Source of the DNA: a virus
Taxonomy: Duplodnaviria > Caudoviricetes
Strand: one strand, 5' to 3'
DNA length: 61,575 nucleotides
Virus record (IMG/VR): IMGVR_UViG_3300032081_000734
Coordinates: 1-61,575 of that record
Within the stretch, counting starts at the first letter, position 1, and each line of letters opens with the position of its first letter. The notes beneath the pieces were generated by a model. That model was given only the letters and a program-made list of their open reading frames with translations, was not told where the DNA came from and searched no databases. Shown here piece after piece: positions 18,865 to 38,900 of this stretch. Made by a program: the position numbers and the translations under genes.

Positions 18865-18872
18865 TATTTATA
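18865..18872 (-). promoter_or_regulatory. T4-type late promoter TATAAATA
   Basis: Exact match overlapping the gp20 stop. Confidence 0.8.
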
Positions 18873-20535
18873 TCTCAGCAGCTCGACCATCAGCCTCAGT
18901 GTATCCACCGTCGGCTTCATCATCCATAGGAATCTCACCCATCCCACCAGTGGCGTCTTGTGGAATTGGATTTCCCATTTCATCTACAGGTGCATTTGGA
19001 TCAGGCAAAATTCCACTAAGAATTTCTTTTTCAATTTGTTGATCAATTTCAATAATTTCTTCATCGGTTTGATGGAGAACTTTTCTACGAAGATATTCAA
19101 CAGAATAGTATTTTCCAAGATATGGTTCTGCTAGTTGAGCGGCACTCAATCTACCTTCCAATAATTCTTTTTCTTTAAGTTCTGCAAAATGATTATCGTA
19201 GATAAAATCAAATTGAATATGCTCTTCAAGTGTCACCCAATCTTTAGTGGTGCAGATATTCTTTAAAAGACATTGAGTCTTTAGCATATCAATAAACATA
19301 TTACTGAAACGCTTTCTTAGACGGCCAACAAACTTAGAGAATTTGAGTTCATCTCTCAAAATTTCACTGGATCGACCAAGATTAAATCCACCCTCAGCAC
19401 CAATTCTGGATTCAGGTACACTTAATGATCTGTATAGTTTCTTTTGGAAATAAGCAACATCACTGAGTTCTCCAAGATTTTGACCACCAGGAAGTGTGGT
19501 AATTTCTGTACCACGACCACCCTCACGTCTAGGAAGCCAGAAATCTTCAAGCATACTCATATGCTTACGATCATCACGAACTTCTCCAGTCGATGCATCA
19601 TAAACCAACTTATTACGATATCGGTTCATTACATCTTTTAGATATTGTTCCGCTTTTATTTTGGGAAGATTGCCAACATCAATGTAGAAAATTCTACGCT
19701 CTGGGGCTCTAGATAATCTATAGATTACCAGAGAATCTTCAATCATTCTAAGTTGATTGAGAGACTTGATTGCTTTGTGTAGATATGAAAGAACTACTCC
19801 CTTATTTCTATCTACAAGACCAGACGTGCAATATGTGATTGAATCTTTAGAAAATTTAATTCCCTTTGTTCCAGAATATCTATCACCCATTCCACCAGCA
19901 TAAGTTGGTCTTGGCATATACATGAAGTATTCTTCAATTTCAGGAAACTGAACTACTTCCTTTTGTTGAGCTCCATTTGGTTGTCTGAAGATAGCATTAC
20001 CATTATTTTGATCTTGCTTAGATTTTTTCTCTTCACGAACATACCTCATTTTAAGAGGATCAATATATCTTAGTTCTTGAATACCTTCTTCAGGTTTTTT
20101 GATATCGATTACTTTATGATAGTAAACTCTTCCATCAACATACCAATTTCTGAAAATTTCATGTGATTTAGCATCAAAGTTCATCAAGTCTTTGATTACT
20201 TTAAATTCTTCCCTAATTCTTTTCTTGATACCGTCACTAGCTGGAAGGTTTTCAAGATTGATAGTGACAGGAGTATCATTAAGATCACTGACAATAGCTT
20301 CATTCACCACATCTTCAATCGCTGTGTCTGCTTCTGGATGAAGCGCCATCTCACGATATCTTTTTACTAATTCAAACTCTGATTTATATACACCTTCTAA
20401 ATCTAAATATTGACCATAAAAGTTACTAGCAATATAATGATCAACCCCATCCTCGTTATTAACGGGGACAGGGGACACTATACTTTTAGATTTTTTTTCG
20501 TTATCTTCAATAGAGAATCCAAAAAGTCTCGCCAT
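18868..20535 (-). CDS. gp20: Portal vertex protein
   Basis: WYVDGR, RAPERRIFYIDVGNLPK, EDFWLPRREGGRGTEI. Confidence 0.98.
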   Translation of the reverse strand: MARLFGFSIEDNEKKSKSIVSPVPVNNEDGVDHYIASNFYGQYLDLEGVYKSEFELVKRYREMALHPEADTAIEDVVNEAIVSDLNDTPVTINLENLPASDGIKKRIREEFKVIKDLMNFDAKSHEIFRNWYVDGRVYYHKVIDIKKPEEGIQELRYIDPLKMRYVREEKKSKQDQNNGNAIFRQPNGAQQKEVVQFPEIEEYFMYMPRPTYAGGMGDRYSGTKGIKFSKDSITYCTSGLVDRNKGVVLSYLHKAIKSLNQLRMIEDSLVIYRLSRAPERRIFYIDVGNLPKIKAEQYLKDVMNRYRNKLVYDASTGEVRDDRKHMSMLEDFWLPRREGGRGTEITTLPGGQNLGELSDVAYFQKKLYRSLSVPESRIGAEGGFNLGRSSEILRDELKFSKFVGRLRKRFSNMFIDMLKTQCLLKNICTTKDWVTLEEHIQFDFIYDNHFAELKEKELLEGRLSAAQLAEPYLGKYYSVEYLRRKVLHQTDEEIIEIDQQIEKEILSGILPDPNAPVDEMGNPIPQDATGGMGEIPMDDEADGGYTEADGRAAEI

Positions 20536-20575: not shown

Positions 20576-21166
20576 TTAGTTGATGTCTCCAGCACCACCA
20601 CCTGCATTATCTGCAGCTGCTGTCCAGAATAGAACTTGTAGTTCGACAGTAAATTCTTCTAGAGAATCAGATGAATCATATGATAGATCGATCTGAGAAA
20701 TGTTTGTTGGGAAAACATCATGGAACTTGTACTTTCTAAGTACACTTCCATCTCTATCTAGTTGATATACGAAAGCGTCAGCTTGGTAATCAGCAGGATT
20801 GACTGCACCAGTCGCATCAGTGACACGATTGATAGAATTCATCCATCTTTCAAATGCTCCTCTGATTCCGAAATCGGTATCATTGAGAACAGTGATTGTC
20901 CAAGTATCAAAGGTTCTGTCTCCAGCAACCTTAAGTAGACGACCACGGAAAGCAACATCAATAGGAGCAATGTTTGATGCAGGCAGCGCAGCTGCCTTTA
21001 CCATAAATCTTGCTTCATTGACGACATTGTTGCTAACACTCAAATTTCCAGGAAATGCGAGTACAACTTCAAATAAATTGGGTCGGGCCCCGCCGCCCTG
21101 CAATTTATTCTTGAAATCGGAAATAGTCCTTAAAGCGGGAGGATTTTGTTGATTTTTTGATGCCAT
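20576..21166 (-). CDS. gp19: Tail tube protein
   Basis: GARPNLFEV, AGDRTFDTWTITV, FPTNIS. Confidence 0.96.
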   Translation of the reverse strand: MASKNQQNPPALRTISDFKNKLQGGGARPNLFEVVLAFPGNLSVSNNVVNEARFMVKAAALPASNIAPIDVAFRGRLLKVAGDRTFDTWTITVLNDTDFGIRGAFERWMNSINRVTDATGAVNPADYQADAFVYQLDRDGSVLRKYKFHDVFPTNISQIDLSYDSSDSLEEFTVELQVLFWTAAADNAGGGAGDIN

Positions 21167-21184: not shown

Positions 21185-23593
21185 TTAAACGTTTCCGATG
21201 ACTTCATCAAATGACACACCAGTTCGTGTTGCCACGAAGGTGAGTCCAACGAAGTTGATTGAGCGTGCTGGTTTGACGAATATATCAGCAACGAATTCAT
21301 TACGATCAATTACAGCAGGAGTGTTGTTGCTTTCGTCACATACAACAACAAAATCTTGAAGTCCACGATTAGATTGAACTTCTCTTAGGAAAGGCTCAAC
21401 AGAGTTAACAAAGTTAGTTCTGGTGATCTCATCGTTGAATTCAAAGAGTTGATCTCTTGCTACAGCGGCGATTGCTTTTTCTAGGAAGATAAACAATCTA
21501 CGAACGTTGATTCTATCGAAAGCAGAAGCTTTCGCGAATCCAGTTTTATCACCGAACAGAACAATACCAGAACCAGGAATAAAGGTTACAGGGTTGATTC
21601 TATTACTGTAGAGACGATCTCTCTGGGACTTACCTGGGTTGTAAGGAAGTTTGACAGCGTTTAGGATAGCTCCTCTATCTGTTCCTGCGGGTGAGAACCA
21701 AGGGAAATCATTGATATCAGTTCTTGCACAAGTTCCAGCAGTATCTCCATTTAGTGGGACATAGCGGAACTTATCAGAGAACCTATCATACATATACTTA
21801 TAACCACTATCAAAGACTGCGAATGAAGATGAAGTGAGTGGTGTGAAGTGACCAATTACGTTATTGGTAATTGTTTCAATAGGTCTTACAACTGCTTCAG
21901 TATCACTATCATTAAAGATAGCAGCTCTATGTGGTGATAGGAATGCAACAGCATCCTTTCTCTTCTCTGCAACTTCGATGACTTTTAGACCAATTGCCTG
22001 AGTTTCTTCTTTGGTGTAGTTTCCAGATCCTTGAAGGATGAAGTCTACAGTGTACTCATCAGGGTTGTTTAGGATTTCATATCCATTAGCAATCTCTGAA
22101 ATATCTGCTGCAAGTGAAGTTGTGGTTGTTAGACCAGTTGCTCCATTGTAGTTTAGACCGCCTGCCAAAGCAGCAGTGGTGTTACCAAATCCTGCGAAAG
22201 AAACTCCAGATGTTGCTTGATCCCATGCAATATTTGTTACTGCAGTGAATCCATTTCCAGTTGCAAGTTTAAAGTCACTTGCTACAGCTCCTGCAGGTTG
22301 TCCACCAGCGAAGAAGTAACCAGAACCACTAGCAACATATGATCTGTAGTAAGATGATGATCCATTTTCAAACTGGGCATCACTTGCTTTAGACAAGTTT
22401 AGATGCTTCTCAAGAATAGTTCCAGGATTACCTGTTTGTGATCCATCGTCATCGATGACAACTAGATGAACTTCATCAAATCTACTATTTCTATTTCCAG
22501 CATACTCTGAAGTTCCTGGGCGATCAGAAAGTTGATTCCAGAAAAGTTCTCCACCAGTATAACTAATTTTTTGTTGATCGAACCAATCAGCCGCTGAGTT
22601 AGTTCTGATAGAACGTGCGAATGTTACTCCAGTACCAACAGGAAGAGTTCCACTAGCAGGGCCAGCAACAGATGTACTGAATCCAGCGAAAGAACTAATT
22701 GTTACAGCAGTTGTTCCAACTCCAGTAACTGTTAGGCCATATCCAAGGTGAGGAACGGAAAGAACATCACTTACAACAACATCAGTTACTGCACCAACAG
22801 GAATAGAAGTAACTCCAGTGGAAAGACCGACTGATGCAAGAGTTGTTGATAGTTCGTTACCACCAGTTACACCTTCACCAGAAGAGTTGATGATTCTTAC
22901 ATCACCAGTGAATCTATAAATTCCATTCTCTTGATAATCAACTTGAGTTGTTACTCCAGCAGCACTTTCATGTTGAACAAATTTGACATCAATAAAGTCT
23001 GCGCCAACTTTAGTTACAATTCCTTTAAATGCACCATCTAGTGTAGAGGTTGCTCCAATACCAGGAACAACGGTTCCTTCGGGAACAACTTGACTTACAC
23101 CCATACCAACTGTAATACCAGTTAGTGCGAGTCCAGTAAGTCTTTGGTCAGCTGCTGAGTCGATGATTGCAACTTTTAAACCGTTACCCCATGATCCAGG
23201 GTTTCTGGAGACAAAAGTGACGTTAGGAATAACGTTATCTTCGTAACCTAAATCATTATAATGCTCTAAACTTTTAATTTTTGGTGCATCTCCAGATCCG
23301 TAGAATGCGTTCTTCATTTCAGAATCATCTACTCTGATGACTCTTAGTGATCCGCCATATGCGAGGAACGAAGATGCGACCATCCAGTTCTCATAATGCC
23401 TGTCAGCATCATATGATTTGCCAAAGTTAGCTAGCAAATCGGATTCATTCTGGATTAGAGTGGGAACTTCTACTGGTCCTTGTGCAAAAGGAGCTGCAAT
23501 AGCAGCAACTTTATCAGATACGGGATCTACTCTTCCTAAAGTAAGATCTACCTCTCTTACAACAATACCAGGAGATGCTAAATTTAGCGCCAT
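21185..23593 (-). CDS. gp18: Tail sheath protein
   Basis: SPGIVVREVDLT, PWFSPAG, FDRINVRRLF, KPARSINF. Confidence 0.97.
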   Translation of the reverse strand: MALNLASPGIVVREVDLTLGRVDPVSDKVAAIAAPFAQGPVEVPTLIQNESDLLANFGKSYDADRHYENWMVASSFLAYGGSLRVIRVDDSEMKNAFYGSGDAPKIKSLEHYNDLGYEDNVIPNVTFVSRNPGSWGNGLKVAIIDSAADQRLTGLALTGITVGMGVSQVVPEGTVVPGIGATSTLDGAFKGIVTKVGADFIDVKFVQHESAAGVTTQVDYQENGIYRFTGDVRIINSSGEGVTGGNELSTTLASVGLSTGVTSIPVGAVTDVVVSDVLSVPHLGYGLTVTGVGTTAVTISSFAGFSTSVAGPASGTLPVGTGVTFARSIRTNSAADWFDQQKISYTGGELFWNQLSDRPGTSEYAGNRNSRFDEVHLVVIDDDGSQTGNPGTILEKHLNLSKASDAQFENGSSSYYRSYVASGSGYFFAGGQPAGAVASDFKLATGNGFTAVTNIAWDQATSGVSFAGFGNTTAALAGGLNYNGATGLTTTTSLAADISEIANGYEILNNPDEYTVDFILQGSGNYTKEETQAIGLKVIEVAEKRKDAVAFLSPHRAAIFNDSDTEAVVRPIETITNNVIGHFTPLTSSSFAVFDSGYKYMYDRFSDKFRYVPLNGDTAGTCARTDINDFPWFSPAGTDRGAILNAVKLPYNPGKSQRDRLYSNRINPVTFIPGSGIVLFGDKTGFAKASAFDRINVRRLFIFLEKAIAAVARDQLFEFNDEITRTNFVNSVEPFLREVQSNRGLQDFVVVCDESNNTPAVIDRNEFVADIFVKPARSINFVGLTFVATRTGVSFDEVIGNV

Positions 23594-23678: not shown

Positions 23679-23906
23679 CTACCAGTCTGGATATTCGTTT
23701 TTGAAGGAAGTATCAATTTTTCTTGAATTCATGACACGTTTGATTGTGCATTCTTTACATTCGTATGAATATGCCGATGGAAAAGATCCTCTATCTTTTC
23801 TAGTAAGATAAAAGTCCGTTAATAAATTTTTTGTTTGACCACAAGATCTGCACTGCCTTTCATTAAAAAGAAGATGTTCTAACTCAAAAGAATCTTCAAT
23901 ATCCAC
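23679..23906 (-). CDS. Zinc-finger hypothetical protein
   Basis: CRSC...FY...CKEC, 75 aa. Confidence 0.7.
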   Translation of the reverse strand: MDIEDSFELEHLLFNERQCRSCGQTKNLLTDFYLTRKDRGSFPSAYSYECKECTIKRVMNSRKIDTSFKNEYPDW

Positions 23907-25552
23907 TATCTATAATCCCACATATAAGATCTATCACCATATTCATCAGCAAACCATCTATCTCCATCATTATCAACTTCACTTACAGTATCTAAACCAT
24001 CAGCAATAAAACCAAACGGAGCCATATCTTGATCGATTTGATTTTTTTGCTCTTCATAAATTCTTTTACGAACATCATTATCAGTCATTTCTTTGAAATA
24101 ATCTTGTGCAACTAACCATGAGAATATAACTAGACACATTGCTAGATCATCATTACATCCCTCTTCAGCCTCAAATGATTGTCTCTTTTGAACAAATGTA
24201 GTTAGTTCGGAAATAATATCATAATCATTTGTTAAAAGTTTATCATCTTCTAATAAAGTTTTTAAATTAGAACATCCTAATTTTTTTACTGCTGATGTCA
24301 TTCTGACACCCAATTGAGATTTTTTACCAGAAAATCCAGATCCAACTACTTGCCCTGCTCTACCTCTCATAGAACACATTAGCAAATTTTCATATTCAAG
24401 ATCAAAATAAAGAATAGATGCAACTTGATCACCAATATCGTTGACTTCAACTAAAACATATGATTGATTATATCCGTCTGCAACTTGTTTGATGATACTT
24501 GGAAATACCATCGGTTTTATTTCATTATTTCTATATTTTGCAACTATCTTATATGGAAATTGTGTTATGTCATATACAATGAAAGCTGAATAGTCACGTT
24601 CTACTCCTCTAGCAACGTCAACAGTAATCATATAATTATGATCTTTTTGAGATGCTTCATAGATATCCAATCCTTTATTTCTTTTGATTGGATCTTCATA
24701 TACTAAGTTTCTAAGTTTAGTGACATCAATCAGAGTATCAACAGATCCAAGGAATTCGCACTCGAACTCAACTTTGAACTGTTGTTCTGAAGTGTTTGCA
24801 ATAGTCTGTTGCTTCCACTTTGCATTTCTTCCAGGAACTTCTGACCAATGTACAGCTGTCGGAACATATTCATTCTTTTGCCTTTCAGCATCATGCCACA
24901 TACGGTAGAAGTGATTCATACCATGTGGTGTTGAAACAATAATTACCTTGGTGTTTTTACCAGACGAGATAGTAGGATAAACAGAGGCAAAGAATTGGTC
25001 AGCAATATGATTTGGGATGAAAGCGAACTCGTCAAGAAAGATGATATTATAGGACCCGCCACGGACAGCAGATGCAGATGTAGATGCGGCGATAATTTTA
25101 GATCCATTCTCCAACTCCAATGATTGTTTGTTCCAAGAAACAATACCCTGTTGCATCCACTTGGGTAAATTTTCATATGCAAGTTGTAATCTTCCAAGAA
25201 GATCTTTCGCAGTAGCTGCTTTGTTTGCTAAGATAGCAATATTAACATTGTCATTAAAGACGGCATAATGAAGCAGATAAGACACGCATGTTGTAGACTT
25301 ACCAGTCTGACGTGGCATCTTACAGATGTTGAATCTATTCTTATGGAAGTTTTTTACAAGTTTCTCTTGGAACTTGTACATCTTAAATGGTACAAGACCC
25401 TCATCTAGAGAAACAATTTTGATATAATTTTTAGCAAAATATACAGGATCTTTTTTACACTTCAAGAATTCTCGAATATCATCTTCAGAAAATTGAATCT
25501 TTGTATTTGCTTTTTTTAGATTTGGATTACCAAGATAAATGCTTTCACTCAT
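23906..25552 (-). CDS. gp17: Terminase large subunit
   Basis: YLGNPNLK, PRQTGKST, IIFLDEFAF, DVARG, DDLAM; ATG at 25552 preferred. Confidence 0.97.
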   Translation of the reverse strand: MSESIYLGNPNLKKANTKIQFSEDDIREFLKCKKDPVYFAKNYIKIVSLDEGLVPFKMYKFQEKLVKNFHKNRFNICKMPRQTGKSTTCVSYLLHYAVFNDNVNIAILANKAATAKDLLGRLQLAYENLPKWMQQGIVSWNKQSLELENGSKIIAASTSASAVRGGSYNIIFLDEFAFIPNHIADQFFASVYPTISSGKNTKVIIVSTPHGMNHFYRMWHDAERQKNEYVPTAVHWSEVPGRNAKWKQQTIANTSEQQFKVEFECEFLGSVDTLIDVTKLRNLVYEDPIKRNKGLDIYEASQKDHNYMITVDVARGVERDYSAFIVYDITQFPYKIVAKYRNNEIKPMVFPSIIKQVADGYNQSYVLVEVNDIGDQVASILYFDLEYENLLMCSMRGRAGQVVGSGFSGKKSQLGVRMTSAVKKLGCSNLKTLLEDDKLLTNDYDIISELTTFVQKRQSFEAEEGCNDDLAMCLVIFSWLVAQDYFKEMTDNDVRKRIYEEQKNQIDQDMAPFGFIADGLDTVSEVDNDGDRWFADEYGDRSYMWDYR

Positions 25553-25558
25553 AATCAA

Positions 25559-26836
25559 TTACCTTTGTTCAATCCAGTTGAGAACTGCCAGTGCCTTTTT
25601 GTTAGTGTTGGGAGAGGCACATGCTAAAGTGTATGTATCACTGATTGTTCCAATACCAGTTCTACCAAGTTGTAGTTGAGCTTTGTCATCAATTTCAGTT
25701 AATGCTGAACTTCCTGCAATAGCAAATCCAGATAGAAGATCAATCCCACCAGTAATTGCAGTGGCACTTACATCATACTGAGCAAATGAATCTGGATTTG
25801 GATGATCTGCAAAATTTTCATCTGTTAAAGTTCCATTTTGAATTAATTTCCAAAAAATATTTGTATTATCATTTGTTGCTGCTTGTAAGGATCTTAGTAA
25901 AAGAACAGCACCTAATTGATCAGATTTTAATCTGACAGTTACGACTGGATAAAATATATTTGCAGATTGTAGTGTAGTGCCAGTAATCGGATTGGATATA
26001 GTTTCAAGAATACCAAGTTTCTCTGGCTCACCTTCTTGAATTAGAGAATTAGAACCCTGATAGATGTAATGAGTTCCAGCAACACCAGTTATATTTTCAA
26101 TCTCAACACGAATGGGTAAGAACGGAGTGGAACACCAAACATTCTCATTAGTATTTGAATTATCAAATGTATGAGACGGAATAGTCTCATTCTTCATTAA
26201 CCATGCAAACTCTACAATACCAGCACCATACCATTCATAGTTGATGGAAATCATCTGCTGTTTTGTTGCATCAGCAGTTACACCAGTATATCCATTACCA
26301 TCAAACTTTTCACCATTCCAATTGTCTCTAGTGACTCTGGTTTCTGTAACAATACCTGTTGTAGTACTACGAATCACATAAGAATAAGTGCCACCATCAT
26401 CCTCAAAGTAAGCACCATTATTTTCATCAAATAATCCAAATCTTCTACGAATACCAACTTGTGGAGTATCAAGACGAATTGCAAATGTAAGAGTTCCACT
26501 TCTACCAGGAATGTATCTCATTACATTCCTGGTTTGTCGAATTACTTTACTTCCAGATGCAGAACCAACCTGCATTGTTACATTACTGGAACTTGCATTA
26601 AAAGTAGCAGTTGCACCGACTCCGACTAATCTTTCATCCCATACATCAGATTCTTTGCCATACTGAAAAGTATTGAAAAATACTGTTTGGTATGGAGCAA
26701 CTTTAAGTCTATTACTATCGGAAAAATTAGGTCTCCAATCTGTCTGGTTTCCCCAATGATCTGCAATATTATATGTCTCAAATAAAGATCTTTCCTGGTT
26801 TAGAAAGTCTTGTGTAGTCTTATTCCACTGTGCCAT
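25559..26836 (-). CDS. Conserved hypothetical beta-rich protein, possibly virion-associated
   Basis: 425-aa ORF in the late operon between gp16 and gp17. Confidence 0.8.
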   Translation of the reverse strand: MAQWNKTTQDFLNQERSLFETYNIADHWGNQTDWRPNFSDSNRLKVAPYQTVFFNTFQYGKESDVWDERLVGVGATATFNASSSNVTMQVGSASGSKVIRQTRNVMRYIPGRSGTLTFAIRLDTPQVGIRRRFGLFDENNGAYFEDDGGTYSYVIRSTTTGIVTETRVTRDNWNGEKFDGNGYTGVTADATKQQMISINYEWYGAGIVEFAWLMKNETIPSHTFDNSNTNENVWCSTPFLPIRVEIENITGVAGTHYIYQGSNSLIQEGEPEKLGILETISNPITGTTLQSANIFYPVVTVRLKSDQLGAVLLLRSLQAATNDNTNIFWKLIQNGTLTDENFADHPNPDSFAQYDVSATAITGGIDLLSGFAIAGSSALTEIDDKAQLQLGRTGIGTISDTYTLACASPNTNKKALAVLNWIEQR

Positions 26837-26838
26837 AA

Positions 26839-27162
26839 TCAGTCAACCCATTCTAGTTTTGAAGGATGATATCTCCTTGCGTTTTTAATATTAAAGTTCT
26901 TTTCTTCTACTGGATAAATGTTATGTACCATTGCACCAGGATATTCACTCTGAAGTTTTTCAGCCAATTCCTGCTTTGATGGTATTCCAGTCTTTGTTAC
27001 CATCTCAATTCTATATATGCTATTCTGCCAAGTTATATCGGCAACATAACTCTCACCAACTTCCTCTTGAGATTGTTGATCTTGAGAGTTGATGTATAGG
27101 TTTCCGTTGAAGTCGCCAGAGATATTGACTGACTCTGACATAAATTGTTTAAAGTTTTTCAT
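26839..27162 (-). CDS. Hypothetical protein with T4 capsid-targeting-like N-terminus
   Basis: ATG at 27162 overlaps the upstream stop; begins MKNFKQFMSE. Confidence 0.75.
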   Translation of the reverse strand: MKNFKQFMSESVNISGDFNGNLYINSQDQQSQEEVGESYVADITWQNSIYRIEMVTKTGIPSKQELAEKLQSEYPGAMVHNIYPVEEKNFNIKNARRYHPSKLEWVD

Positions 27163-28784
27163 CAGCAATTCCAAGCTCTAAGGGACTTATTGATTCTGCT
27201 ATCGGGATCTCTAGCAGTTTTGGCAGAAGTGAGTTTTGCCTTCATACCTTTCATTCTTGCACAGAATGATGATCTTCTTTTGTTACCCTTCTTTTTAGAT
27301 GGTGCTTTTAGATCAGAACCAGGGTTCTCTCTTTCATAAGACTTACGTCCTTTTTCATTGAGGCCACCTTCTTTGTTCTTACCAGACTTCTTAGTCCATG
27401 CAGCACCTTCTGCCATGAAATTTCCAAAACTTTTAACACCTTCTACAGTTACAAGCGGTTCATTTTCAATACGATCTCTTTCAAAGAAATTTGCCAATAT
27501 AGCTTCAGGATAAATTTTTCTGAGTTGAATTAATACATCTTCTCTAGAAGGTCTCTTTGATGTTGGAAAGAAAAATTGAAGTGACTTATACTGACCTCTA
27601 AAGGTAAAGAAGATTGTATAAGTTCTTCCCGTTTTTTGAATTCTTTCATATTTTTCTTCAACATACTCTTCATTTGATGGAGTAACAGAAGCAATATCAA
27701 ATGTATTTGATCCAAGAGCAGCAGGACTTGAATTCATATCCCAGTTTTTTGGCCCATATGCACACTCTTCTCTAGTCTCATTCTTTTGGCACTGAGGGCA
27801 ATAACGAACATTTCCCATACCCTCTACATGTAGACTGAGATTGTCACCGAGATTTACTTCTTCTTTCTTAGTTTTCTTAACACAGTTTGGATATCTCTTT
27901 CCAAACATAGTCTTCATGCCTTTCTGCTCATAACCTTTCCAACATGCTTCGCCAATCTCCACTTCTTCTTTTGTGCTATTACCCCAGTTAGCAGCACCAA
28001 CCTTACGACACTTTACTAAAGCACCAGAAGCATAAGCAGAGGGCCATACAGAATAGCGAGACTTGACCTTACTGTAACAAGCGTCTTTCTTACCACTACC
28101 TTTTCCTGGTGTATCCTTTGCTTCTTTCATTGATTCTTTTTTCTTTTCTGGTAAATTTTTATGCTTTGTTTTTGCAAAATCTTTTACATCTTTCAACTTC
28201 ATACTGGATGCAGCTTTAGCAACCTCAGATGATGGATTTTCCATTTCACCTTTTTGAGTTGCTCTAACCATTCCAAAAAATCTTTGCTGTTTTTTAGAAA
28301 CTGCTTCTTCGTTTCTAATTTTTCTATCAGTTTTTACCATGGTAGGTGCAGATGCTCCAGTTTTTTTCTGTTGACCAGGATCTTCTCTTCTCTTTGCTGC
28401 CTTAGCAGCAACTCTCTCTTTCTTAGACATACTTGCCCTTTTAGAAGAAGAAACACATTTAGGAATACCTTCACCAGGTTTATCACTTGCACAGGTTCCA
28501 CCTGTTACAACATTAACCCATCCACCTTTACCATCTTTTGATTTAGATTTACCAAACCAATCACGTAGCCCTTCTTCAGATATTCCACCGTCACCATTAG
28601 CATTTCCACCATTGCCATTACTACTTTCACCATTACCATTCTTTTTATTCTCGGAATCATCACCTTCTTCATCTTTTGCAAGATATCCACGAGAACCAAT
28701 ATGGTATCCCATAGGAATCTTCTTACATTTTTTATCTGTAAAACAGTAGTAATAACCAATTTTACATTTCTTAGATTCCGTCAT
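27162..28784 (-). CDS. Modular basic protein, candidate internal-head polyprotein
   Basis: 540 aa; Lys-rich small modules separated by Glu-ending linkers. Confidence 0.8.
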   Translation of the reverse strand: MTESKKCKIGYYYCFTDKKCKKIPMGYHIGSRGYLAKDEEGDDSENKKNGNGESSNGNGGNANGDGGISEEGLRDWFGKSKSKDGKGGWVNVVTGGTCASDKPGEGIPKCVSSSKRASMSKKERVAAKAAKRREDPGQQKKTGASAPTMVKTDRKIRNEEAVSKKQQRFFGMVRATQKGEMENPSSEVAKAASSMKLKDVKDFAKTKHKNLPEKKKESMKEAKDTPGKGSGKKDACYSKVKSRYSVWPSAYASGALVKCRKVGAANWGNSTKEEVEIGEACWKGYEQKGMKTMFGKRYPNCVKKTKKEEVNLGDNLSLHVEGMGNVRYCPQCQKNETREECAYGPKNWDMNSSPAALGSNTFDIASVTPSNEEYVEEKYERIQKTGRTYTIFFTFRGQYKSLQFFFPTSKRPSREDVLIQLRKIYPEAILANFFERDRIENEPLVTVEGVKSFGNFMAEGAAWTKKSGKNKEGGLNEKGRKSYERENPGSDLKAPSKKKGNKRRSSFCARMKGMKAKLTSAKTARDPDSRINKSLRAWNC

Positions 28785-29194
28785 TGTTGGCTTTTAAGAA
28801 ATTTAGCTAGTTCTGCAGTAGACCCTACAAATAATGAATTATTTGTAATGGATTTCGGACCAGAGTCCTCATCTTTATTTAGTTCCTTCATTTTTTTCTG
28901 TAAATCTATAAGTTTATCAGTTGTATCTGCAACACTTTTTATAATCTGTCCAGCAACTTCATATGCTCTAGGAGAATCTGACTCCTGAGCTAATTCCATA
29001 ATTCCATTTAAACTTTCTTGACCTTTTTCAATTAAAGAATAAAGATTTCCTCTCGTATATTCATAGTCTTTCTTAGACTGTTCAATTCTTTCATCAGAAA
29101 CAATAGGAATAATTTCAGATTCCTTGGGAGTGACATCTATAATATCAGTTTCAGTATTCAGAGAATCGCTAATTTTATCGAATGATTTTGACAT
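28781..29194 (-). CDS. gp16: Terminase small subunit
   Basis: DYEYTRGNL, PRAYEV, FVGSTAEL. Confidence 0.94.
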   Translation of the reverse strand: MSKSFDKISDSLNTETDIIDVTPKESEIIPIVSDERIEQSKKDYEYTRGNLYSLIEKGQESLNGIMELAQESDSPRAYEVAGQIIKSVADTTDKLIDLQKKMKELNKDEDSGPKSITNNSLFVGSTAELAKFLKSQQ

Positions 29195-29202
29195 GACATT
29201 AA

Positions 29203-30000
29203 TTATGAATCAGTTCCTGAGGCTGGATTAAATGACTTACTATCACTAAACATTTCTATCGTTTCACTGAATCCAAAGTCATCTCCAGGACTAGCATCAA
29301 TGGGATCAGGAACAGCGGTATATCTCATTTCACGTTTAGCGGTATCTGTATCAGTTTGAGTGTGATAATCAACTTGAACCTTACGAATGAGTCCATCAGT
29401 GCTTTCTGCAATAGGACCAAATAGATATGTGTTAGCAGTAAACGTTAAATTATAAATTAAAGCTCTCCTTGTTTGGAAATTTCCTTCATATTCATCTTGC
29501 ATATTGATATTATTTAATGCAATGGCAATATCTCTCTTTTCTCCTATTGAACTCACTAAATCAACAGTAACTTTAAAAGATGGTTGAAAGTATGGTAAAA
29601 TTTGCTCTATAATTTGTAGAGCGTCTTCATTTAGTTTTGAATATATTGATAGTTGAAATTCTACGTTATAAGGAACAGGAAGAAATACTTTTTTTAGGTT
29701 CTCACCATCTACTGCTTTGAAAGTTTTAGTTACATTTGACTTTCTAGATGCATCATATGTAATTCCCAACATTTCAAATGACATTCGTGGTAATGTTATT
29801 GCCACTGATCTATCGAAATCAGGGTTTTGCAACAATCTTGCAAGAAACTTTTGTTGGGGTGCATATGCTAAAGGAACTTTTATGTCACTAATTGTTCCAG
29901 AGTCATCACTTGTATGTCTTATATGAATATCATTGAATATAGTACCAAAGGCAACAATTGTCTTTCGTAATATTTCGTGATAGTAATAAGTTCCTAACAT
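29203..30000 (-). CDS. gp15: Tail sheath stabiliser / terminator
   Basis: AFGTIFNDI, LPRMSFE, EQILPYFQP. Confidence 0.95.
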   Translation of the reverse strand: MLGTYYYHEILRKTIVAFGTIFNDIHIRHTSDDSGTISDIKVPLAYAPQQKFLARLLQNPDFDRSVAITLPRMSFEMLGITYDASRKSNVTKTFKAVDGENLKKVFLPVPYNVEFQLSIYSKLNEDALQIIEQILPYFQPSFKVTVDLVSSIGEKRDIAIALNNINMQDEYEGNFQTRRALIYNLTFTANTYLFGPIAESTDGLIRKVQVDYHTQTDTDTAKREMRYTAVPDPIDASPGDDFGFSETIEMFSDSKSFNPASGTDS

Positions 30001-31379
30001 TAGTATGTACCAAAGGGATTCGATTCTGTAAAGTCTACGATATCGTCAGCTAAGTTTTCAATTTCTTCATTTTGAGCATATGCTATTTCAATTCCAGGGT
30101 CTGAATTAAATGTAGAAACTGTATGCGTGGCGTTAGATGTAGCGCCAACAACATCTTCTCCAGCTGTGAACGTACCACTATTTATGTACACGTCTAGGGT
30201 CTTGGCATCTTTATCGTATTTCTTGACTCTTGCTGTAGCACCAGATAGACTTCCAGTAACAATTTCATTACTAATAAAGATTCCAGTTCCAATTGATGGT
30301 GCTGTAGAAATCCCCACAGTTGGTGCCACAGTATAACCAAAACCAGCGTTTCTAATTCTCATTTCAGTAATAGTTCCACCAGTTCCAATTGTAGAAATTA
30401 CTTCAGCAGAAGAACCAATTGAAGTATTTGCTGAACCAGCTAAAGTTACTATAGGAGCATTGACATAAAGTGATCCAGGGTTTGTAATGGTAAGTGTTTG
30501 AACAGATCCATCACCAAGAATTGCTGTTGCAGCTGCTCCAACACCACCGCCACCACTAAACGTTATGGTTGGAACCTCTGTGTATCCTGCACCAGCATTT
30601 GTGATAAGAACTTCCAAGATGGAGTTTGATGTTGTTATAGCAACAGCTGTTGCATTTGTTCCACCTACAGGTGCAGTTGAAATTGCAACCGTTGGTGCTG
30701 ATGTATAGTTATATCCATCATTATTAAGTTGAACTTTTCTAACTGATCCAGTTAACGCAATGCCAGCAGTTGCAGTAGCATTTACACCAGATCCTGTAAG
30801 ATTTATTGTAGTAATATACCCTTCATCAACAACTCTATCATCAATTGCCTCAATACCAGTATCGATAATTTCATCTTCAAGTCTAAGAAGTTCACAACTT
30901 ATCTGATAAACATAATTTTTACCTAATTGGTAAAATGGTTTTTCTTCCTCAACAAATTTAATTTCATAAAGTCTTTCACCAAGAGGGAAGAAAATGACAT
31001 CACCTTCTCTAGGCCTAGAATCTAATATAATTTCACTAGCATCTTGTTCTTTTAAATCTTTTAAAAACTCTACGATATAAGTCTGAAATCTTTCTGCTGA
31101 AATTGTTAATGATATTTCATTTCTAAGTTCAATACCAAATTTTGACATGATATTGACATTATCACCATATCCTTGATAATTATCAAGATATGCTTCGATG
31201 ATAAAATTATCATCTAACTTAGACATTGTAACTTCTTTAGAAATTTTTTCAGTGCCAAGAATTTTTCGTGGGATATAATATACATCTATCCCATATATTT
31301 TTAACTGCTCATTAATCAAATCTTGAAGTAAATACTGCTCTTGACTTGATCCTTGTAGAAAATAAGAATTTCTTGCCAT
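30000..31379 (-). CDS. gp14: Neck protein with inserted GxGY-P repeat region
   Basis: GIDVYYIPR, PREGDVIFFP, PFYQLGK, FTESNPFG. Confidence 0.93.
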   Translation of the reverse strand: MARNSYFLQGSSQEQYLLQDLINEQLKIYGIDVYYIPRKILGTEKISKEVTMSKLDDNFIIEAYLDNYQGYGDNVNIMSKFGIELRNEISLTISAERFQTYIVEFLKDLKEQDASEIILDSRPREGDVIFFPLGERLYEIKFVEEEKPFYQLGKNYVYQISCELLRLEDEIIDTGIEAIDDRVVDEGYITTINLTGSGVNATATAGIALTGSVRKVQLNNDGYNYTSAPTVAISTAPVGGTNATAVAITTSNSILEVLITNAGAGYTEVPTITFSGGGGVGAAATAILGDGSVQTLTITNPGSLYVNAPIVTLAGSANTSIGSSAEVISTIGTGGTITEMRIRNAGFGYTVAPTVGISTAPSIGTGIFISNEIVTGSLSGATARVKKYDKDAKTLDVYINSGTFTAGEDVVGATSNATHTVSTFNSDPGIEIAYAQNEEIENLADDIVDFTESNPFGTY

Positions 31380-32218
31380 TATCCTATCATGTCCATGGGT
31401 GGTAATTCATAATAACTAGCCATCTTATCTTCTATTTCTCTTATTTCTGCATTTCCATCTTCATAATATTGTCTACCATTAAGTTCAACACCTCCAGGTA
31501 GTTTGGTTCCACTAAATTTCATCATGTTCGCACCCCACTGTCTTTTGATTAAAGAAGTTAAGTATCTTTTTACCCAAGTATCATTATATATTTTATTAAA
31601 ATCTGATGGATTTAAAGCACGAATACAGTCAATAACAAGATAATCACCAGCTGTCTGAGCAGTCCAATCAATATCTAGATACAATCTACCAGATCTCTTT
31701 GAAAATCTAACTTGCTTATCTGTAGTTAATAAGAAATCAATATCTTCTAGATATCTTTTTGTCATTGAATAATTTAGAAGATCCACACTACTGAAGTAGT
31801 ATAGATCATTTAAAAATAGTTGATATTTAATACTAAACATGCCACCAGAAATAGAACTAGTGTCAAATTTAAAAATTTTATTGATTCCTATAACAGAATC
31901 TGGTACTTTAATATAATTGTTGTTCTCTTCAAAAGAAAATTCTGTTGTCAATCCAACAGATTCTGTTACTGTTGTAGTTGAAATTCCAGTGCTTGCAGAA
32001 CTACCTGGACCCCTTCCCCTATCAATATCATCTTGTGTAATTTGATATTTTAGAAATGTTTTTTCAGATCCATCAAAATGACGTTCTTGAAAATATTGAA
32101 TGGTATCATCAACCAAATCATCTATCTGATCATCATCCACGTTGATTTCTAAAACTGGCGCACCAAGTTTTCGTAGAGAGTAATCTATTAATTCTTGTCT
32201 TGTAGATGGTGATGCCAT
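31379..32218 (-). CDS. gp13: Neck protein
   Basis: LRKLGAPVLEINV, KRQWGANMMKF, LPGGVELNG. Confidence 0.95.
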   Translation of the reverse strand: MASPSTRQELIDYSLRKLGAPVLEINVDDDQIDDLVDDTIQYFQERHFDGSEKTFLKYQITQDDIDRGRGPGSSASTGISTTTVTESVGLTTEFSFEENNNYIKVPDSVIGINKIFKFDTSSISGGMFSIKYQLFLNDLYYFSSVDLLNYSMTKRYLEDIDFLLTTDKQVRFSKRSGRLYLDIDWTAQTAGDYLVIDCIRALNPSDFNKIYNDTWVKRYLTSLIKRQWGANMMKFSGTKLPGGVELNGRQYYEDGNAEIREIEDKMASYYELPPMDMIG

Positions 32219-32959: not shown

Positions 32960-35900
32960 TTATGCTAATGCAATGGTTCTAAGATCATTCATTCTAGGAG
33001 CGAGACACTCATTTGTTCCACTAAACACAATCTTTATCTGATATGCAGTAAATGGTGGCAATTCATCAATACTGAATTGGTACTCCCTCATTTCATCAAC
33101 TGTTACAGAAATAACTTGCTGATCTGGTTTACCAGAATTTTTAGATGGATCTATGACTTGATCGCCAAAATTATCACCATCAGTATCAGTTAAGTTATCA
33201 AATCCAGGGAACAGAACAAATGATGGATTTGTGTTTCCACTATCAACTGGGAATGTTCTGAAGAGTGCTCTGATGTCTGCAGTGGGATCAACATAAGCTG
33301 CTGTGAACAACTTAAGTGAAGTTGCAGGGTTTTTCAGATCAATCCTATCAGAAACGTAGATTGCAGCATGAGGATCATCTTGTATGGAATTTACTCTAGA
33401 ATCGGTTGTATAATCACTAATTGGATTATCAACTCTAGATCTATCAAAGTCAATAGAGCAGTTATTAAGATAGATAAATGGTGAATAATTACTATCTGTA
33501 CTCTGCAAATCAACTTCAACTGTAAATGATTTGTTTCTTGGTAGACCTGTTACATTTGCTTCTTCATTTACTTTTGAACAAACCATTTGAGGTTGGCCAA
33601 ACAATAAAGTTGCATTTGGTTCAGTTGACAAGAACCCTTGATCAACGAAAGATGCTTCATTACCACCAGCACTAGTTCCAGAAATTGTTCTCACGCGAGT
33701 TTCAATTTTGGTCTTCTTAGGAGTAACAATGTCAAGTCTGCAGTTTAATCTGTCATACTGAATGTTACCAGAAGCAAATACTTCATCACCACCAGCAATA
33801 AATTCACTTGCAAAATTCAACATGTTTGGACCATCTCTCCTATTACCCCTATCAATTTCAATATAGTAGGTATCAATAGTTTTATTTGCTTGGAAAACTA
33901 CTGCAGAAGGAATGTTATGGACTTTGTTAATTTGAGTCAGTGAAATGTCATTGAATTCATATGGATATACTTCGTCTCCAGCTGCATGTCTAACGGCCGT
34001 GGTTCCTTCTGCGCCTCTTGTGGCTATTCCAAGAGTGCCATTACCAATGCTGTTGTAATACATGACTTCATTATCAACCAAGATATATCCAGCAGAAGTA
34101 GTTATACCTTGGAATGTTCCATAAGGTGAAGTGTCAGCAACTCCAATAGATGTTACAGTGGCGTTAATATCCACATTTAATTCTGAAGGAATTCTTGTTG
34201 GATCTACGTTATAGATGTCAACAACATTACGAGTATCTTTCAGTGCATGATTTGGATGAAGAACTTCAATTACATTTCCTGAATGCAATTCATCAGAAAC
34301 AATAGAAGTTCTAACTGCTGTTGTAACACCAGTATTCAAAGTTTGTGCATTTCCACTATCATCATAGTAAACTAGTGGATCATCAACAACAAGGTGTTCA
34401 CCTCTGACATTTGTAAGATAAAGTGTATCAACACCATCAATCGCAGAAATTGATATCTGAGCACCAGTACCTTTAGTCACATCTGCTGTAGTAATGCCAA
34501 GAGACTCTCCAGCAATATAACCAGTTCCAGTATTTGCAATTGACGCTGAAGATAAAACACCATTAGCAATTGTTACTATACCTGTTGCTCCAGATCCATC
34601 ACCAGATAATGAGAAGAAGTTTACATTACTGTAAGTACCATCAGAATATCCAATACCAGGCAAATTAGCTTTCAGGGATTGGATAGTTCCACCAACATTA
34701 CCAATTACACCAGTAACAAGTGATCCAGTTCCGACCTTTCTACCAATCTGTAGAACATCCTTCATCCCTTGTGTCAATACAGTTGTAATACCAACATCAA
34801 GTTGTCTTGGTAGAGACTTAATTGGATCTTCTGGCATATCAGGAAGTTGATCACCATCTCTATCAATATCTGGATTATGGAATGTAACAGTTCCGTTATC
34901 AACTAAGAAACGACACTTATTAACTCGGAACTTCATGTCTTCAAACTGACATGGTGTCCAAATAGAACCGTTCTGTGACTTATACAGTGAACCAGAACCA
35001 TACTGTCTAGTATATTGCTGTGATTCAGGCCCAGATAGTTCTGCAGTGTTTACAGTTTTCTCTCCAAGTTTTGCAATCCAAGCATTATACTTGATCGAAG
35101 TTGGTGCTAGAAGTACAATACAATATTCAGTTTCTGGTTCAACAGGAATTGGTGCTGAGAAAGTAACTCTAGTAGCAACACTAGCATCATCAGAAATATT
35201 TATTTGTGATGGTTGGAGAACCACTTGTGCTTCTTGAGAAACAAGTTGTAGTGTTGGTAGACCTAATTGAATTGTTCTTAATTCAACAGTCAATGGTGCT
35301 CTACGATCTTTTGTTGCCATGTAAATGTCAACAGAGGAAATGAATGCACCTTTTTTATCTGTTGTGAATGACTGTGCCAGAGGGTCTCTTCTAGGAACTG
35401 GTCTTACAACAACCCTCTCCCTCAAAACTCGGGTTTCCCTAATAATTCTAGGCTCAATAACTCTTGTTCTTTCAACAATCTCCCTTCTCACAATAATCTG
35501 TGGGGGTGGAAGTCTCTGCATTCTAAAGACATTCGTTTTGGTTACAGTCGTAACCGCATTTTTAGTTGTCGTTACCAGTTTTTTAATGGTTGTTGTTAAT
35601 GTAGTTCTGGTAATTGTTCCTGAAGAGGTGAATGGAGCTTCTGCATCACTATGCTTAATTTGTCCAGGTAATGCAACTGTATCCTTACTATCGTTAGTTA
35701 ATTTGAATACTTTGGTTCCTGTCTTAAATCTTGCATTTACATCTTTTGGTCCAGCAAATGCAATGTTTCCATACAAACTTCCAATACCATCAGTCATCAA
35801 CCTTTTTCTACTGACTGTTGCAACTGCACCACTCTTTCTACCGATAATTACATAATTTGACCAGAAGTTTCCAAAGAACTTACCTTGTGCCTTACGAGAC

Positions 35901-38900
35901 ATTCCAAGAATATCTAGATTCAAAAATGTAGAAGAACTATTGTAACTAGTTAACCTACTAATATCTTGTCCTCTATTATATGGATTAAAAGTATATACAT
36001 CGCTTGGGCTTGTAATCCTTCCAGACTTATGATTTGGTCTAGCAAGTCTACAAACAGCTGTTCTACGAGCTCTCTTAAACTTTTTAGTTTTAGGATCGTC
36101 AACGGCAATATTAGAGAATCGACCATCTCTAACATATCTTTGTGCCTTTCTATTCCAAATTTCAACAATTTCTCCAACTTGGAAAGATCCCTGAACGTTT
36201 TTAATTTCAACCAACTTAGGAAGAAGTCTTACCTTTCTGGATCCATCATAGAAACCATAATATCTTGTAAATGGTTTCAATCCATCAGCAAAGAAAGAGA
36301 CGTTTCTCTCTCTCATATACTTGGCTTTAGTAGTCTTTGAGTCAATTTTTGTAGAAACGTCAGTAATTGAAGTTGATACTGATGTATCTACTTTCGTACT
36401 CTTCTTGGTCGTAGTCTTCATTGAAGACGGACCATTTTTTGGTTTTCCAACCCTGAATTTTTCTACAACGTTTTGACTCTTAGTGTTTAAGGTCTTAAAC
36501 TGTCTCTGAATTCTCTTTTTATTACTAACCTTAGTTTCTGTCCATGTATCTTGTGCTGGTTGTAACAGAATAGTACCAACATAATCAATAATACTGAATG
36601 GGTTTACATTCTCAACTCTAGTTGCATATGCTTGTTTCAGATACTCAATCTCTTCATATCTTAGACTTACAACATTTCCTGTTTTTTGGCAATTTGTATC
36701 CAACAATGGATCATTAGATGATAGATCTAGAGTATTAACATCATCTTGTGTTCGATACTGTAACTGTGGGGTTAAAGTTATTTGGGAAGCTTCACATGAA
36801 AGTTGTTCGATACCTGGATCAACAACCATAGTTGTCAATTCACTATCAAATAAGTCATTATTTGTAAAATCATCAGCAAAGAAACCAGTTTTGAATCTGC
36901 TCAATCCATCAGCGTCTGTAATCTCTAAAGATCTAGTATCATTTTCAAGTATTGAAAGAGAAACTGTATCTTCAAGATTTTCAATTCTATCTTGAAGAGC
37001 ACCGATATCTCTCATCGTGAAACGCTTATTATCAATAAGAGTTAGTCTAGTGCTTTCAACATTATAAACATATGGTGGAGACTCCAATGTTGCCAAAGTC
37101 ATAGAGTCTTCGACAACTGAAGGTACTTGTGGATCTTCAGATGGAACACCTTCAACAACTTCAATTTCACCCTCTGGAGTTAGAAGAATTCTATCCATTC
37201 TACCTAAGTAGAAATCATAACTAAGGAAAGAACTTTCAGAGTCTTTTGGGATCAATGGTGAAGAAGAACCAGTGACTGAGAAATCTCTAGAGTCATAATC
37301 AAATGGTGATTTTCCAGCTTCAGTTCCGAAAGGAGCAACTCTTGGTCTAAAGTCTAATGTATCTGAAGCTCTTGCAAAACTAAATTGATTGAAATTGTTT
37401 GGATCAAAAATATCTGGTATGTCATTCTTGAATCTATCTGCACCATAAGATAGTACAGTAAAAGCATCACCATCATCACTATCTGGGATAACGTAATGAT
37501 TGAAGATAACTAACAACTGTTTTGTTGGAACTTTATTTTCAACTCTAACTAATCTTGAATAATCAGAGAAATCTGGTCTTTGACCATCATCAAGAATATA
37601 TTGCTCAGTTATATCTACATATCTACCTTCAATAATTGCCTGAATAGTTCCTTCAATTTTAGATTCTTGGAATGTGAGAGTTTCACCAACAGAGAATCTA
37701 TCATCATTCAAATATACAATTTCAACTTTAGTTGGTGATGATCTTGTAACAATTTGTGCTACAGCATTATTATCGGGTCCAAGAATGTACTCACCAAGAA
37801 TTGAATTTGTATCTAATGCAAGACCAGTTTCAAATGTCAATGCATCTAATACTGGAGCTTCTGATGTTTTGGATTCATATACAGCAAGAATTTCTGCAAC
37901 ATCTGGATAATTTAGTGAAATTTCTTCGTCTTCAACTCTAAGTCCATAAAAAGCGTTATGGTTCATTCCATTGACGGTTCCTGTAGAGATTCCAGAACTC
38001 CTCAATTTGGACTTATCTACAGTTAGTTTTGTACTTCTTGACCACTGTTTTAATTTTGATTGCAATCCTCTCTTTTTAGCTGTTACAAGAACAGTAACGT
38101 TACTTTCACTTCTCTTTAGACCACTAAATGAAATTTCAGTTCCATCACTATTGAGTGTGAACTGTTCAGATCTCAGTCTTTCTGTAGATCCATCCGAATA
38201 TGTTATTACATATCTTTCACCATCAAAGGCATCAAAAAATGAACTTGTTACACCAACATTACTAATGTTGATGGACATTTCACCTTGAGCATTTGTTGAT
38301 TGTGCAAGTATTTGATCATAAATTGTAAGATTTGATCCAGAAATATCAACTGATGCAATATTTGCCTGATCTAATGGTAAAAATAGTGATCCGCCATTGT
38401 CACCTTGTTCAAATCTTGTCTGACCAATTCTAAATCCAGTTTCAATTGTGCCAGATGGTAGAGTTCCAGTAACAACACCAGCGACCGTTGGTACGGCCAC
38501 AATTGTCATTGAATCTCCATCAGCAGCAACTGCACTTACACGGTTGAATACAACATTATCATATTCTGGATTTTGATATCTGATAATTGAATTAGTTGCA
38601 ATTCCAGTAAACTTATTACCTGGAGAAGTTACAGTTCCTCCTGATGTAATTTGAACTGTATCTCTTCTAGTAAATCTAGGAGCGACTCTACCTCTTTGAA
38701 GTGTATCTGCAACAAAATCAGCAGTTAAACCAAGAGTTGATGCATCCTGATATACAGATTTTACTGAATTGATATCATAAACTATCATATCTTTGATAGT
38801 TCTTGGAAATTCATTTGTGCCATCAATACTGATGGTTTCTCCTTCAGCAAAAGTTCCAGAAGTTTGATGAAGTTTTACTTTGTCACCACTTGTCCAAGCT

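Follow-up and report, generated by a model that had tools for sequence, protein, structure and literature searches.

Between the genes for the small and large terminase subunits, terS (gp16) and terL (gp17), of the virus record IMGVR_UViG_3300032081_000734 lies a minus-strand open reading frame (ORF) of 540 amino acids (aa). The record, analyzed here over its full 61,575 nucleotides ("the window"), is a portion of a T4-like cyanomyovirus genome (Kyanoviridae), the nearest isolate being Synechococcus phage S-T4, with about 78% nucleotide identity across 64% of a 15-kb query. An earlier reading of the letters alone (the sequence-only reading) had taken the ORF for a polyprotein of small basic head proteins, cut up by the prohead protease gp21. 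Here we describe the modular make-up of the protein, the motifs at its junctions and the targeting-like sequences in and next to it; taken together, we put the probability that the gene encodes a gp21-processed polyprotein of head cargo at roughly 55%.

The ORF and all of the residue numbers of the sequence-only reading proved correct when the translation was read again, and its division of the protein into about eight self-contained modules is backed by PHROG matches to sub-regions, by local hidden Markov models (HMMs) and by an AlphaFold2 model (Table 1). The whole protein belongs to a PHROG family of unknown function, and residues 73–173, 155–217, 215–273 and 456–540 have matches of their own to other families, likewise of unknown function. 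The model was made from an alignment of the target and 33 long relatives, all from IMG/VR loci. Its mean predicted local distance difference test (pLDDT) is 62.9 and its predicted template modelling score (pTM) 0.25, so that the protein would have no fixed overall shape. Instead, there are seven confident islands and a weak one (residues 329–351), joined by linkers with pLDDT below 50 (residues 41–68, 136–159, 208–232, 270–277, 307–328, 352–383 and 446–475). All seven proposed cut sites are inside these low-confidence linkers: GGISE70-E71/GLRDWF, IRNE159-E160/AVSKKQ, SMKE221/AKD, EIGE279/ACWKGY, KKE308-E309 together with LHVE321/G, YVE376-E377/KYE and VKSFGNFMAE459/GAAW (the slash marks the cut). 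The modules carry net charges of +4 to +17 (module 6 has 0) and the linkers 0 to -7. There are 14 cysteines, all within modules and grouped in pairs or triplets, which bears out the earlier description of mostly basic modules with Cys pairs. The protein thus resembles beads on a string, each module being conserved independently of the others.

How constant is this array? By tblastn, the 540-aa protein matches 494 of the 50,697 phage records, of which almost all are cyanophages, and in only 17 does the match span 80% or more of the query. When the C-terminal module, which belongs to the Pfam family DUF6321 (DUF, domain of unknown function), is used as query by itself, 492 records match, and with module 4 by itself 366. 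At least 596 IMG/VR loci encode DUF6321, and 7,964 short metagenome proteins match it. The comparisons of related loci that follow concern the best 80 of these (at least) 596 loci, which were therefore selected for DUF6321, and the boundaries of the local module HMMs were taken from those of the sequence-only reading. Copies of DUF6321 in the kept loci are 80–96% identical to that of the target, while the remainder of the protein is typically 35–60% identical. DUF6321 is nearly always C-terminal, in ORFs of 86–1247 aa (94–1247 aa when complete).

In front of it, by the local HMMs, the long forms usually have the order M1-M2-M4-M5-M7-M8 (M, module) plus variable inserts. One such insert, a DUF192 domain (PF02643, COG1430), sits between modules 2 and 4 in 16 of the 34 aligned members (for example in loci L034, L037, L040 and L062), the target itself not being among them. 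Two-module arrangements include M6-M8, M1-M8, M5-M8 and M3-M8; M7-M1-M8, M7-M5-M8, M5-M2-M4-M8, M3-M2-M4-M5-M8, M2-M5-M4-M7-M8 and M2-M6-M5-M4-M7-M8 also occur, and module 5 is duplicated in some relatives. Phage S-SSM7 has a 994-aa protein with module 8 followed by module 1, and in P-SSM4 and S-SSM7 modules are scattered across several adjacent genes at a different locus. Both the module set and its order thus vary between phages, and the protein is neither always co-linear nor a single folding unit, since the arrangements differ and the model has separate islands.

Database searches say little about what the modules do. DUF6321 (PF19846) matches residues 468–538 with 79.1 bits against a cut-off of 28.5, over profile positions 1–72 of 72, and is present in all 34 aligned members (the target and its 33 relatives). 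The family covers only 13% of the 540-aa protein, and its function is unassigned in Pfam. Of the three likenesses that the sequence-only reading had named, this one was right. DUF3008 (PF11450) aligns with residues 161–215 over its full profile length, at 18.4 bits and E 0.0025, which is under its cut-off of 24, and DUF5872 (PF19197) had no match in the 540-aa protein at E≤0.1 in Pfam; it is found in 3 of the 34 aligned members, the target not included. None of the internal-protein (IP) families of Pfam or NCBIfam was matched by the target. The NCBIfam search gave nothing meaningful, and there is no recognizable enzymatic domain by Pfam or NCBIfam. Searches of the PDB gave no match by sequence at E≤1 and none by Foldseek with the full model at E≤0.001. 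Against BFVD, Foldseek returned only uncharacterized relatives, with no function assignable from the fold, and for residues 378–540 the ESM Atlas gave only viral clusters of DUF6321. A literature search, which left many subscription papers outside its scope, found no functional work on DUF6321 or DUF3008.

The junctions between the modules bear a recurrent hydrophobic-x-Glu motif. In T4, gp21 cuts after the glutamate of L/I-x-E and removes the 65-residue propeptide of the major capsid protein gp23 (PMC9026906). The gp21 homolog of the window is 43% identical to the T4 protein over 150 aa (E 3e-34), and L-Q-E57/A58 in its gp23 aligns exactly with the T4 cleavage site L-T-E65/A66. The LQE/A motif of gp23 and the LQE and LSE motifs of gp22 are thus present as the sequence-only reading had stated, and gp21-type processing of the 540-aa protein is plausible on the strength of such sequence signals. 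Of the seven junctions where the sequence-only reading had proposed cuts after Glu, only five fit the pattern [ILVMF]-x-E (ISE70, MKE221, IGE279, VEE377 and MAE459). The pattern occurs nine times in the target: at these five junctions, at MTE3 and at three places inside modules.

Among relatives, junctions were counted as having the motif when it ended at most 8 residues upstream of a module start, and the number expected was obtained by shuffling the 20 residues in front of each start. The motif preceded 164 of the 232 non-redundant internal copies of modules, as opposed to 47.1 expected (about 3.5-fold; counts by module in Table 1). The residue after the glutamate (P1') was A in 54 cases, G in 34, K in 30, E in 16 and S in 9. 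Inside modules there were 0.85 motifs per 100 aa, compared with 3.41 elsewhere. All 34 aligned sequences have E377 in front of module 7, with V (16), I (7), M (7) or L (4) at P3 and A (29), G (2), S (2) or K (1) at P1'. Of the 34, 32 have E459 at the start of the DUF6321 unit, followed by G (24) or A (8), and 23 have the glutamate that precedes module 5. In relatives, G[IVM]SE or a similar sequence precedes module 2.

To these motifs the present analysis adds a new element, sequences that resemble the capsid-targeting signal of T4. According to the T4 record, internal proteins IPIII and IPII begin MKTYQEFIAE/A, and IPI begins MKTFKEFTSTTTPVSTITE/A, opening MKTFKEF. The fourth and seventh of these 10 residues are important for targeting, the eighth and tenth for processing (PMC9026906). 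Residues 450–459 of the target, VKSFGNFMAE/G, match MKTYQEFIAE/A at positions 2, 4, 7, 8 and 10, and the 107-aa gene directly downstream opens MKNFKQFMSE/S; the two share Lys 2, aromatic residues at 4 and 7, Met 8 and Glu 10. When the whole 61.5-kb window was scanned for a strict form of the pattern, K.[FYW]..[FYLIM][IMLVT][ASG]E, the coding frames gave just two matches, one at target residues 451–459 and one at the N-terminus of the next gene; a further match is in a non-coding frame.

The mechanical ORF call had begun the downstream gene at TTG 27174 (111 aa). The likely start, the ATG at 27162, overlaps the TGA of the 540-aa gene by one base (TGATG), which suggests that the two genes are translationally coupled. 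The 107-aa product has the targeting-like signal at the N-terminus, followed by a domain like module 7, and its relatives open MK[STN][FY]..F..E. The two domains are linked by a profile match (E 1.8e-21) whose HMM had taken in sequences of both kinds, whereas a direct BLASTP of the pair gives a weak E of 0.022. An internal translation start for DUF6321 can be rejected, the codon of V450 being GTT.

Targeting-like starts are also the rule for DUF6321 when it stands alone or nearly so. Of the eight complete DUF6321 ORFs no longer than 144 aa, seven open with one, while no long one does. Examples are a 94-aa protein, MKTFKQFCIDLDE/GAAW, proteins of 103–104 aa, M[KR]xY[KE]EFKRL...ILE/GAAW, and a 133-aa protein that reads MKTFHQFCLSE/E, then module 1, then ...E/GAAW. 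Matches to a looser pattern are also found at three module 6 starts. The related loci contain 791 distinct complete ORFs on the plus strand with a length of 50 aa or more. Of these, 14 open with M-x-x-[FYW]xx[FYW][ILMVQT]xE, all 14 as MK[STN][FY], whereas the internal frequency (23 in 141,799 residues) predicts about 0.13; 10 of the 14 belong to the module-7-like family that includes the 107-aa gene. Internal copies at junctions include GMKTFAEFQAE/CW, KKSFQEFQTE/GKKCW, GISFQQFSE/KCW, GITFSQFMSE/AKSAAW and ACLSFTQFMVE/VAAW. The methionine retained in some of these suggests that the arrays arise by fusion of neighboring signal-bearing genes, and the one-nucleotide stop/start overlap between the DUF6321 unit and the next signal-bearing unit suggests that an intermediate state is seen in the window.

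Small basic genes beside the scattered modules of P-SSM4 (L003 3525–4327) and S-SSM7 (L002 3981–4346) have similar openings: MLSFKSF..., MLSFKAYLAE/K (T4-GC422, in P-SSM4) and MKNFQEFQE/A (in S-SSM7). The small genes of T4-GC421 and T4-GC422 are further candidates for head cargo with a T4-type targeting signal. No capsid-targeting sequences, internal proteins or N-terminomics were found for cyanophages in the literature searched, many subscription papers being outside it.

Is the protein part of the virion? The homolog S-SCSM1_29, 54% identical over residues 4–540, is collinear with the target, occupies the same place upstream of terL and carries the product name 'virion protein' in its record. 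In CsCl-purified virions of S-SCSM1, 45 proteins were detected by mass spectrometry (MS) and marked in the genome figure (PMC9602691). Homologs in S-B43, RB11-B, RN05-S and S-P4 are labelled 'structural protein', the basis of the labels being unstated. Those of P-SSM4 and S-SSM7 are noted as 'similar to S-SM1 protein', which might mark them as orthologs of virion proteins. The podovirus P-SCSP1c (Autographiviridae; L090 4917–5171) and the Pelagibacter phage HTVC103P (L091 4857–5141) have stand-alone DUF6321 proteins of 84 and 94 aa. Their genes directly follow the major capsid protein gene, and there is no propeptide; the HTVC103P protein opens MGLLSSPAWTRKEG, approximately at the predicted mature N-terminus of the cyanomyovirus copies.

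Several observations weigh against a gp21-processed polyprotein. The target begins MTESKKCKIGYYYC, straight into module 1, with no N-terminal targeting sequence, and for T4 the signal is demonstrated at the N-terminus only (PMC9026906). The junctions at E160 (IRNEE160) and E321 lack the motif, and the strict L/I-x-E of T4 is found at just two of the seven, ISE70 and IGE279, while the looser motif also occurs inside modules (LPE213, FFE435 and LNE477). Before module 8, the P3 residue is hydrophobic in only 43 of 66 copies, common forms of this junction, ...LHAE/G and ...LQTE/G, placing the hydrophobic residue at P4. Related sequences share ancestry, so the counts are not independent events, and their independence is further limited by the selection of loci for DUF6321 and by the HMM starts borrowed from the sequence-only reading. 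The 106-aa gene downstream in S-SCSM1, which has a targeting-like start, is labelled 'hypothetical protein', and so is the S-SM1 homolog (T4-GC119). In Sullivan et al. 2010 (PMC3037559), g16-g17 is named as a hot spot of accessory genes, and T4-GC119 is assigned, together with zwf, gnd, petE and PTOX, to a cassette that may be mobile. For every family member, moreover, cleavage and a location inside the head are what we infer from sequence.

Some of these points would be explained if the protein were never cut. It would then be an uncleaved multi-domain virion or DNA-binding protein, one long flexible chain that, for example, binds or condenses DNA or forms a minor structural part, and its Glu motifs and internal decapeptides would be disused relics of small-gene fusions. 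The target and the other long forms without an N-terminal targeting sequence fit this explanation, as do the two junctions without the motif, and the kept methionine of the internal GMKTFAEFQAE resembles a fusion scar. The mostly conserved M1-M2-M4-M5-M7-M8 order of the long homologs also suggests selection on the whole protein. However, relics should decay, yet E377 is invariant, E459 is nearly so, and P3 and P1' are conserved; the 3.5-fold enrichment of the motif at module starts, moreover, holds whichever module is the upstream neighbor. We regard this explanation as doubtful, though it is the best of the competitors.

Alternatively, a single cleavage at E459 or E377 might free the DUF6321 unit (perhaps with module 7) alone; the rest, a carrier or something akin to a scaffold, would be degraded or expelled like T4 gp22, gp67 and gp68. 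The two sites are indeed the best conserved, DUF6321 is far better conserved than the remainder and is the sole module common to the podoviruses, and in the target the targeting-like peptide precedes the DUF6321 unit only. On the other hand, the other modules are also conserved and Cys-paired and recur alone or in other combinations, and module 5 (43 of 47 copies) and module 2 likewise have a strong excess of the motif in front of them; we consider a single cut unlikely. Still less credible is a non-virion late nucleic-acid-binding or regulatory protein of the hypervariable g16-g17 region whose likeness to the T4 signals is coincidental: the accessory hot spot, the possibly mobile cassette and the hypothetical label in S-SM1 would suit it, but the virion label of the S-SCSM1 homolog comes from a study with an MS proteome, four other phages have (unexplained) structural labels, DUF6321 is encoded among the head genes of podoviruses, and the targeting-like motif is enriched about 100-fold at N-termini.

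How, then, would a gp21-processed polyprotein be handled? The precursor would be a chain of eight mini-domains, mostly rich in Lys/Arg, each folding on its own. It would enter the prohead core, perhaps by way of the internal targeting-like peptide or through an affinity of its basic modules for the acidic scaffold, and gp21 would cut after Glu within the exposed, flexible linkers, most likely after E70, E221, E279, E377 and E459; motifs inside folded modules would escape. The predicted fragments are of 6.2–16.6 kDa, with an isoelectric point (pI) of 9.4–10.6 in four of the six. They might stay with the packaged DNA, as T4 IPI–III do, and may be ejected along with it. In the DUF6321 unit and in the product of the coupled 107-aa gene, the targeting decapeptide would immediately precede the cut. 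Packaging into the head, cleavage, DNA binding and injection are all steps that we infer. Since the modules are found elsewhere as single signal-bearing genes or in other fusions, the locus would be one arrangement of a recombining set of head cargo.

For proteins that enter the cell with phage DNA, the T4 internal proteins are the classic example, and one of their number counteracts a restriction system; to our knowledge, they had been regarded as poorly conserved beyond the T-even phages. They share several traits with the target: small basic products, which for the target are predicted; a decapeptide in which position 2 is Lys, positions 4 and 7 are aromatic, position 8 is hydrophobic and position 10 is Glu, with A, G or S next; a gp21-type protease gene nearby; and a repertoire that varies among related phages. 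Mature T4 IPI, IPII and IPIII, at 8.0–20.4 kDa and pI 9.0–9.65, are comparable to the predicted fragments of the target. However, the target has its signal inside the chain, whereas the T4 internal proteins carry theirs, an MKT[YF]xEF..E-like stretch of 10–19 residues, at the N-terminus (as does the 107-aa gene product), and its eight units are fused in one ORF, whereas the T4 internal proteins have separate genes. No homology to IPI, IPII or IPIII was found in the mature parts by BLASTP. The best alignment, at E 0.06, starts at the targeting-like decapeptide, and only the targeting peptide aligns, so that the target would work like the T4 internal proteins without being homologous to them. 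An anti-defense role of the modules might be imagined purely by analogy to T4 IPI.

Other systems offer partial parallels. The T4 core proteins gp22, gp67 and gp68 have multiple L/I-x-E sites and are cut to pieces inside the prohead by gp21 (PMC9026906). They are acidic scaffold, and their fragments mostly exit the head, whereas the units of the target are folded, basic and Cys-paired and recur as genes of their own. In the giant phages SPN3US and phiKZ, head-internal inner-body or ejection proteins undergo maturation by a prohead protease with cleavage after Glu (PMC5694885, PMC7411985, PMC10052503). These proteins belong to another lineage, are large and have another motif, and no swappable array of mini-modules is described in the parts of those papers that were available. 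Like the proposed precursor, the polyproteins of RNA viruses have several units in one chain that are separated by a protease; unlike them, the target would depend on a separately encoded capsid maturation enzyme. The 'polyvalent proteins' of phages and plasmids also have several functional units in one chain and are delivered with nucleic acid.

A wider scenario is possible, though we hold it tentatively. T4-like cyanophages might use the T4 targeting and gp21 signals to load a recombining set of mini-proteins, encoded as single, coupled or fused genes. DUF6321 would be the DNA-associated core cargo, shared with podoviruses, and the variable modules, including DUF192, would be injected effectors of host take-over or counter-defense. 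An internal targeting sequence would then suffice to load a polyprotein, which is not described for T4.

The surroundings of the gene are those of a T4-like head and neck region (Table 1), with the presumed processing enzyme, gp21, encoded in the same window. In S-SM1 (L089, 94000–105000), the homolog (T4-GC119) is followed by petE, PTOX, gnd and zwf, all between gp16 and gp17; the window, in contrast, lacks metabolic genes of this kind there. The 425-aa protein encoded after the 107-aa gene has an L-F-E motif in its N-terminus (MAQWNKTTQDFLNQERSLFE/T), which might be another gp21 site. Between gp20 and gp21 (18382–18839, minus strand), where T4 has gp67 and gp68, are two small ORFs of 63 and 88 aa. 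The gp14 homolog (neck, head closure), of 459 aa, has a long C-terminal extension (residues ~190–450) that matches repeat regions in PHROGs of fiber, baseplate and large structural proteins. Upstream of the neck genes, on the minus strand, are two giant ORFs of 4744 aa (41998–56232) and 2476 aa (32960–40390), presumably large fiber-like or virion structural proteins.

Table 1. Genes of the locus and parts of the 540-aa protein, with positions in the window. The last two columns give the module copies with [ILVMF]-x-E upstream out of all non-redundant internal copies, and the number expected.
Feature	Positions	Strand	Residues	AlphaFold2 island	Remarks	Motif upstream	Expected
gp13	31379-32218	minus					
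gp14	30000-31379	minus					
gp15	29203-30000	minus					
gp16 / terS	28781-29194	minus					
540-aa ORF	27162-28784	minus			ATG start, stop at 27162-27164; predicted pI 9.7; phrog_727 full-length (5.6e-126)		
Module 1	28665-28784	minus	1-40	4-40, beta	Cys-rich beta mini-domain, C7/C14/C20; net +6; HMM in 31 ORFs; pLDDT ~90	5/6	1.0
Linker 1	28572-28664	minus	41-71		acidic, Asn/Gly-rich; ends GGISE70/E71		
Module 2	28329-28571	minus	72-152	69-135, mixed fold	GLRDWF..., C98/C110; net +12; HMM in 45 ORFs; phrog_12753 at 73-173	17/33	2.9
Module 3	28134-28304	minus	161-217	160-207, helical	helical; DUF3008-like (sub-threshold); net +8; phrog_30268 and phrog_28725; pLDDT 78-92	2/2	0.6
Module 4	27975-28121	minus	222-270	233-269, helical	DACYxKVKSRY..SAYASGALVKCRK, C236/C259; after SMKE221/A; HMM in 49 ORFs	19/34	10.0
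Module 5	27867-27947	minus	280-306	278-306, beta-hairpin	CWKGY...PNCVKK beta-hairpin, C281/C301; after EIGE279/A; 56 copies in 51 ORFs; pLDDT 84-87	43/47	11.7
Module 6	27729-27821	minus	322-352	329-351, weak model	RYCPQC...EECAYGP, C329/C332/C341; after off-consensus LHVE321/G; HMM in 11 ORFs; pLDDT 45-61	4/6	1.1
Module 7	27438-27653	minus	378-449	384-445, beta-beta-alpha-beta, pLDDT 90+	after YVEE377/K; profile-related to downstream 107-aa family	31/38	8.4
Targeting-like decapeptide	27408-27437	minus	450-459		VKSFGNFMAE459/G		
Module 8	27165-27407	minus	460-540	476-540, helical	DUF6321 (Pfam 4e-22); net +17; C508/C540; most conserved module	43/66	11.4
Downstream 107-aa gene	26839-27162	minus			phrog_1742		
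425-aa 'virion structural protein'	25559-26836	minus			phrog_1645 (5.3e-172); directly downstream of 107-aa gene		
gp17 / terL	23906-25558	minus					
gp18	21185-23593	minus					
gp19	20576-21166	minus					
gp20	18868-20535	minus					
gp21	17727-18377	minus			prohead protease; presumed processing enzyme		
gp22	16712-17671	minus					
gp23	15240-16661	minus			major capsid protein		

Marine cyanomyoviruses are among the most abundant viruses of the ocean. If the polyprotein is indeed loaded and cut as proposed, the loading and cutting signals of T4 would operate in these phages too. The reading predicts exact N-termini for the fragments, which could be sought by mass spectrometry, and the motif offers a route to finding head cargo. 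It also suggests a natural design by which several capsid-loaded proteins are obtained from one gene, and it would give a function to the very large, uncharacterized DUF6321 family.

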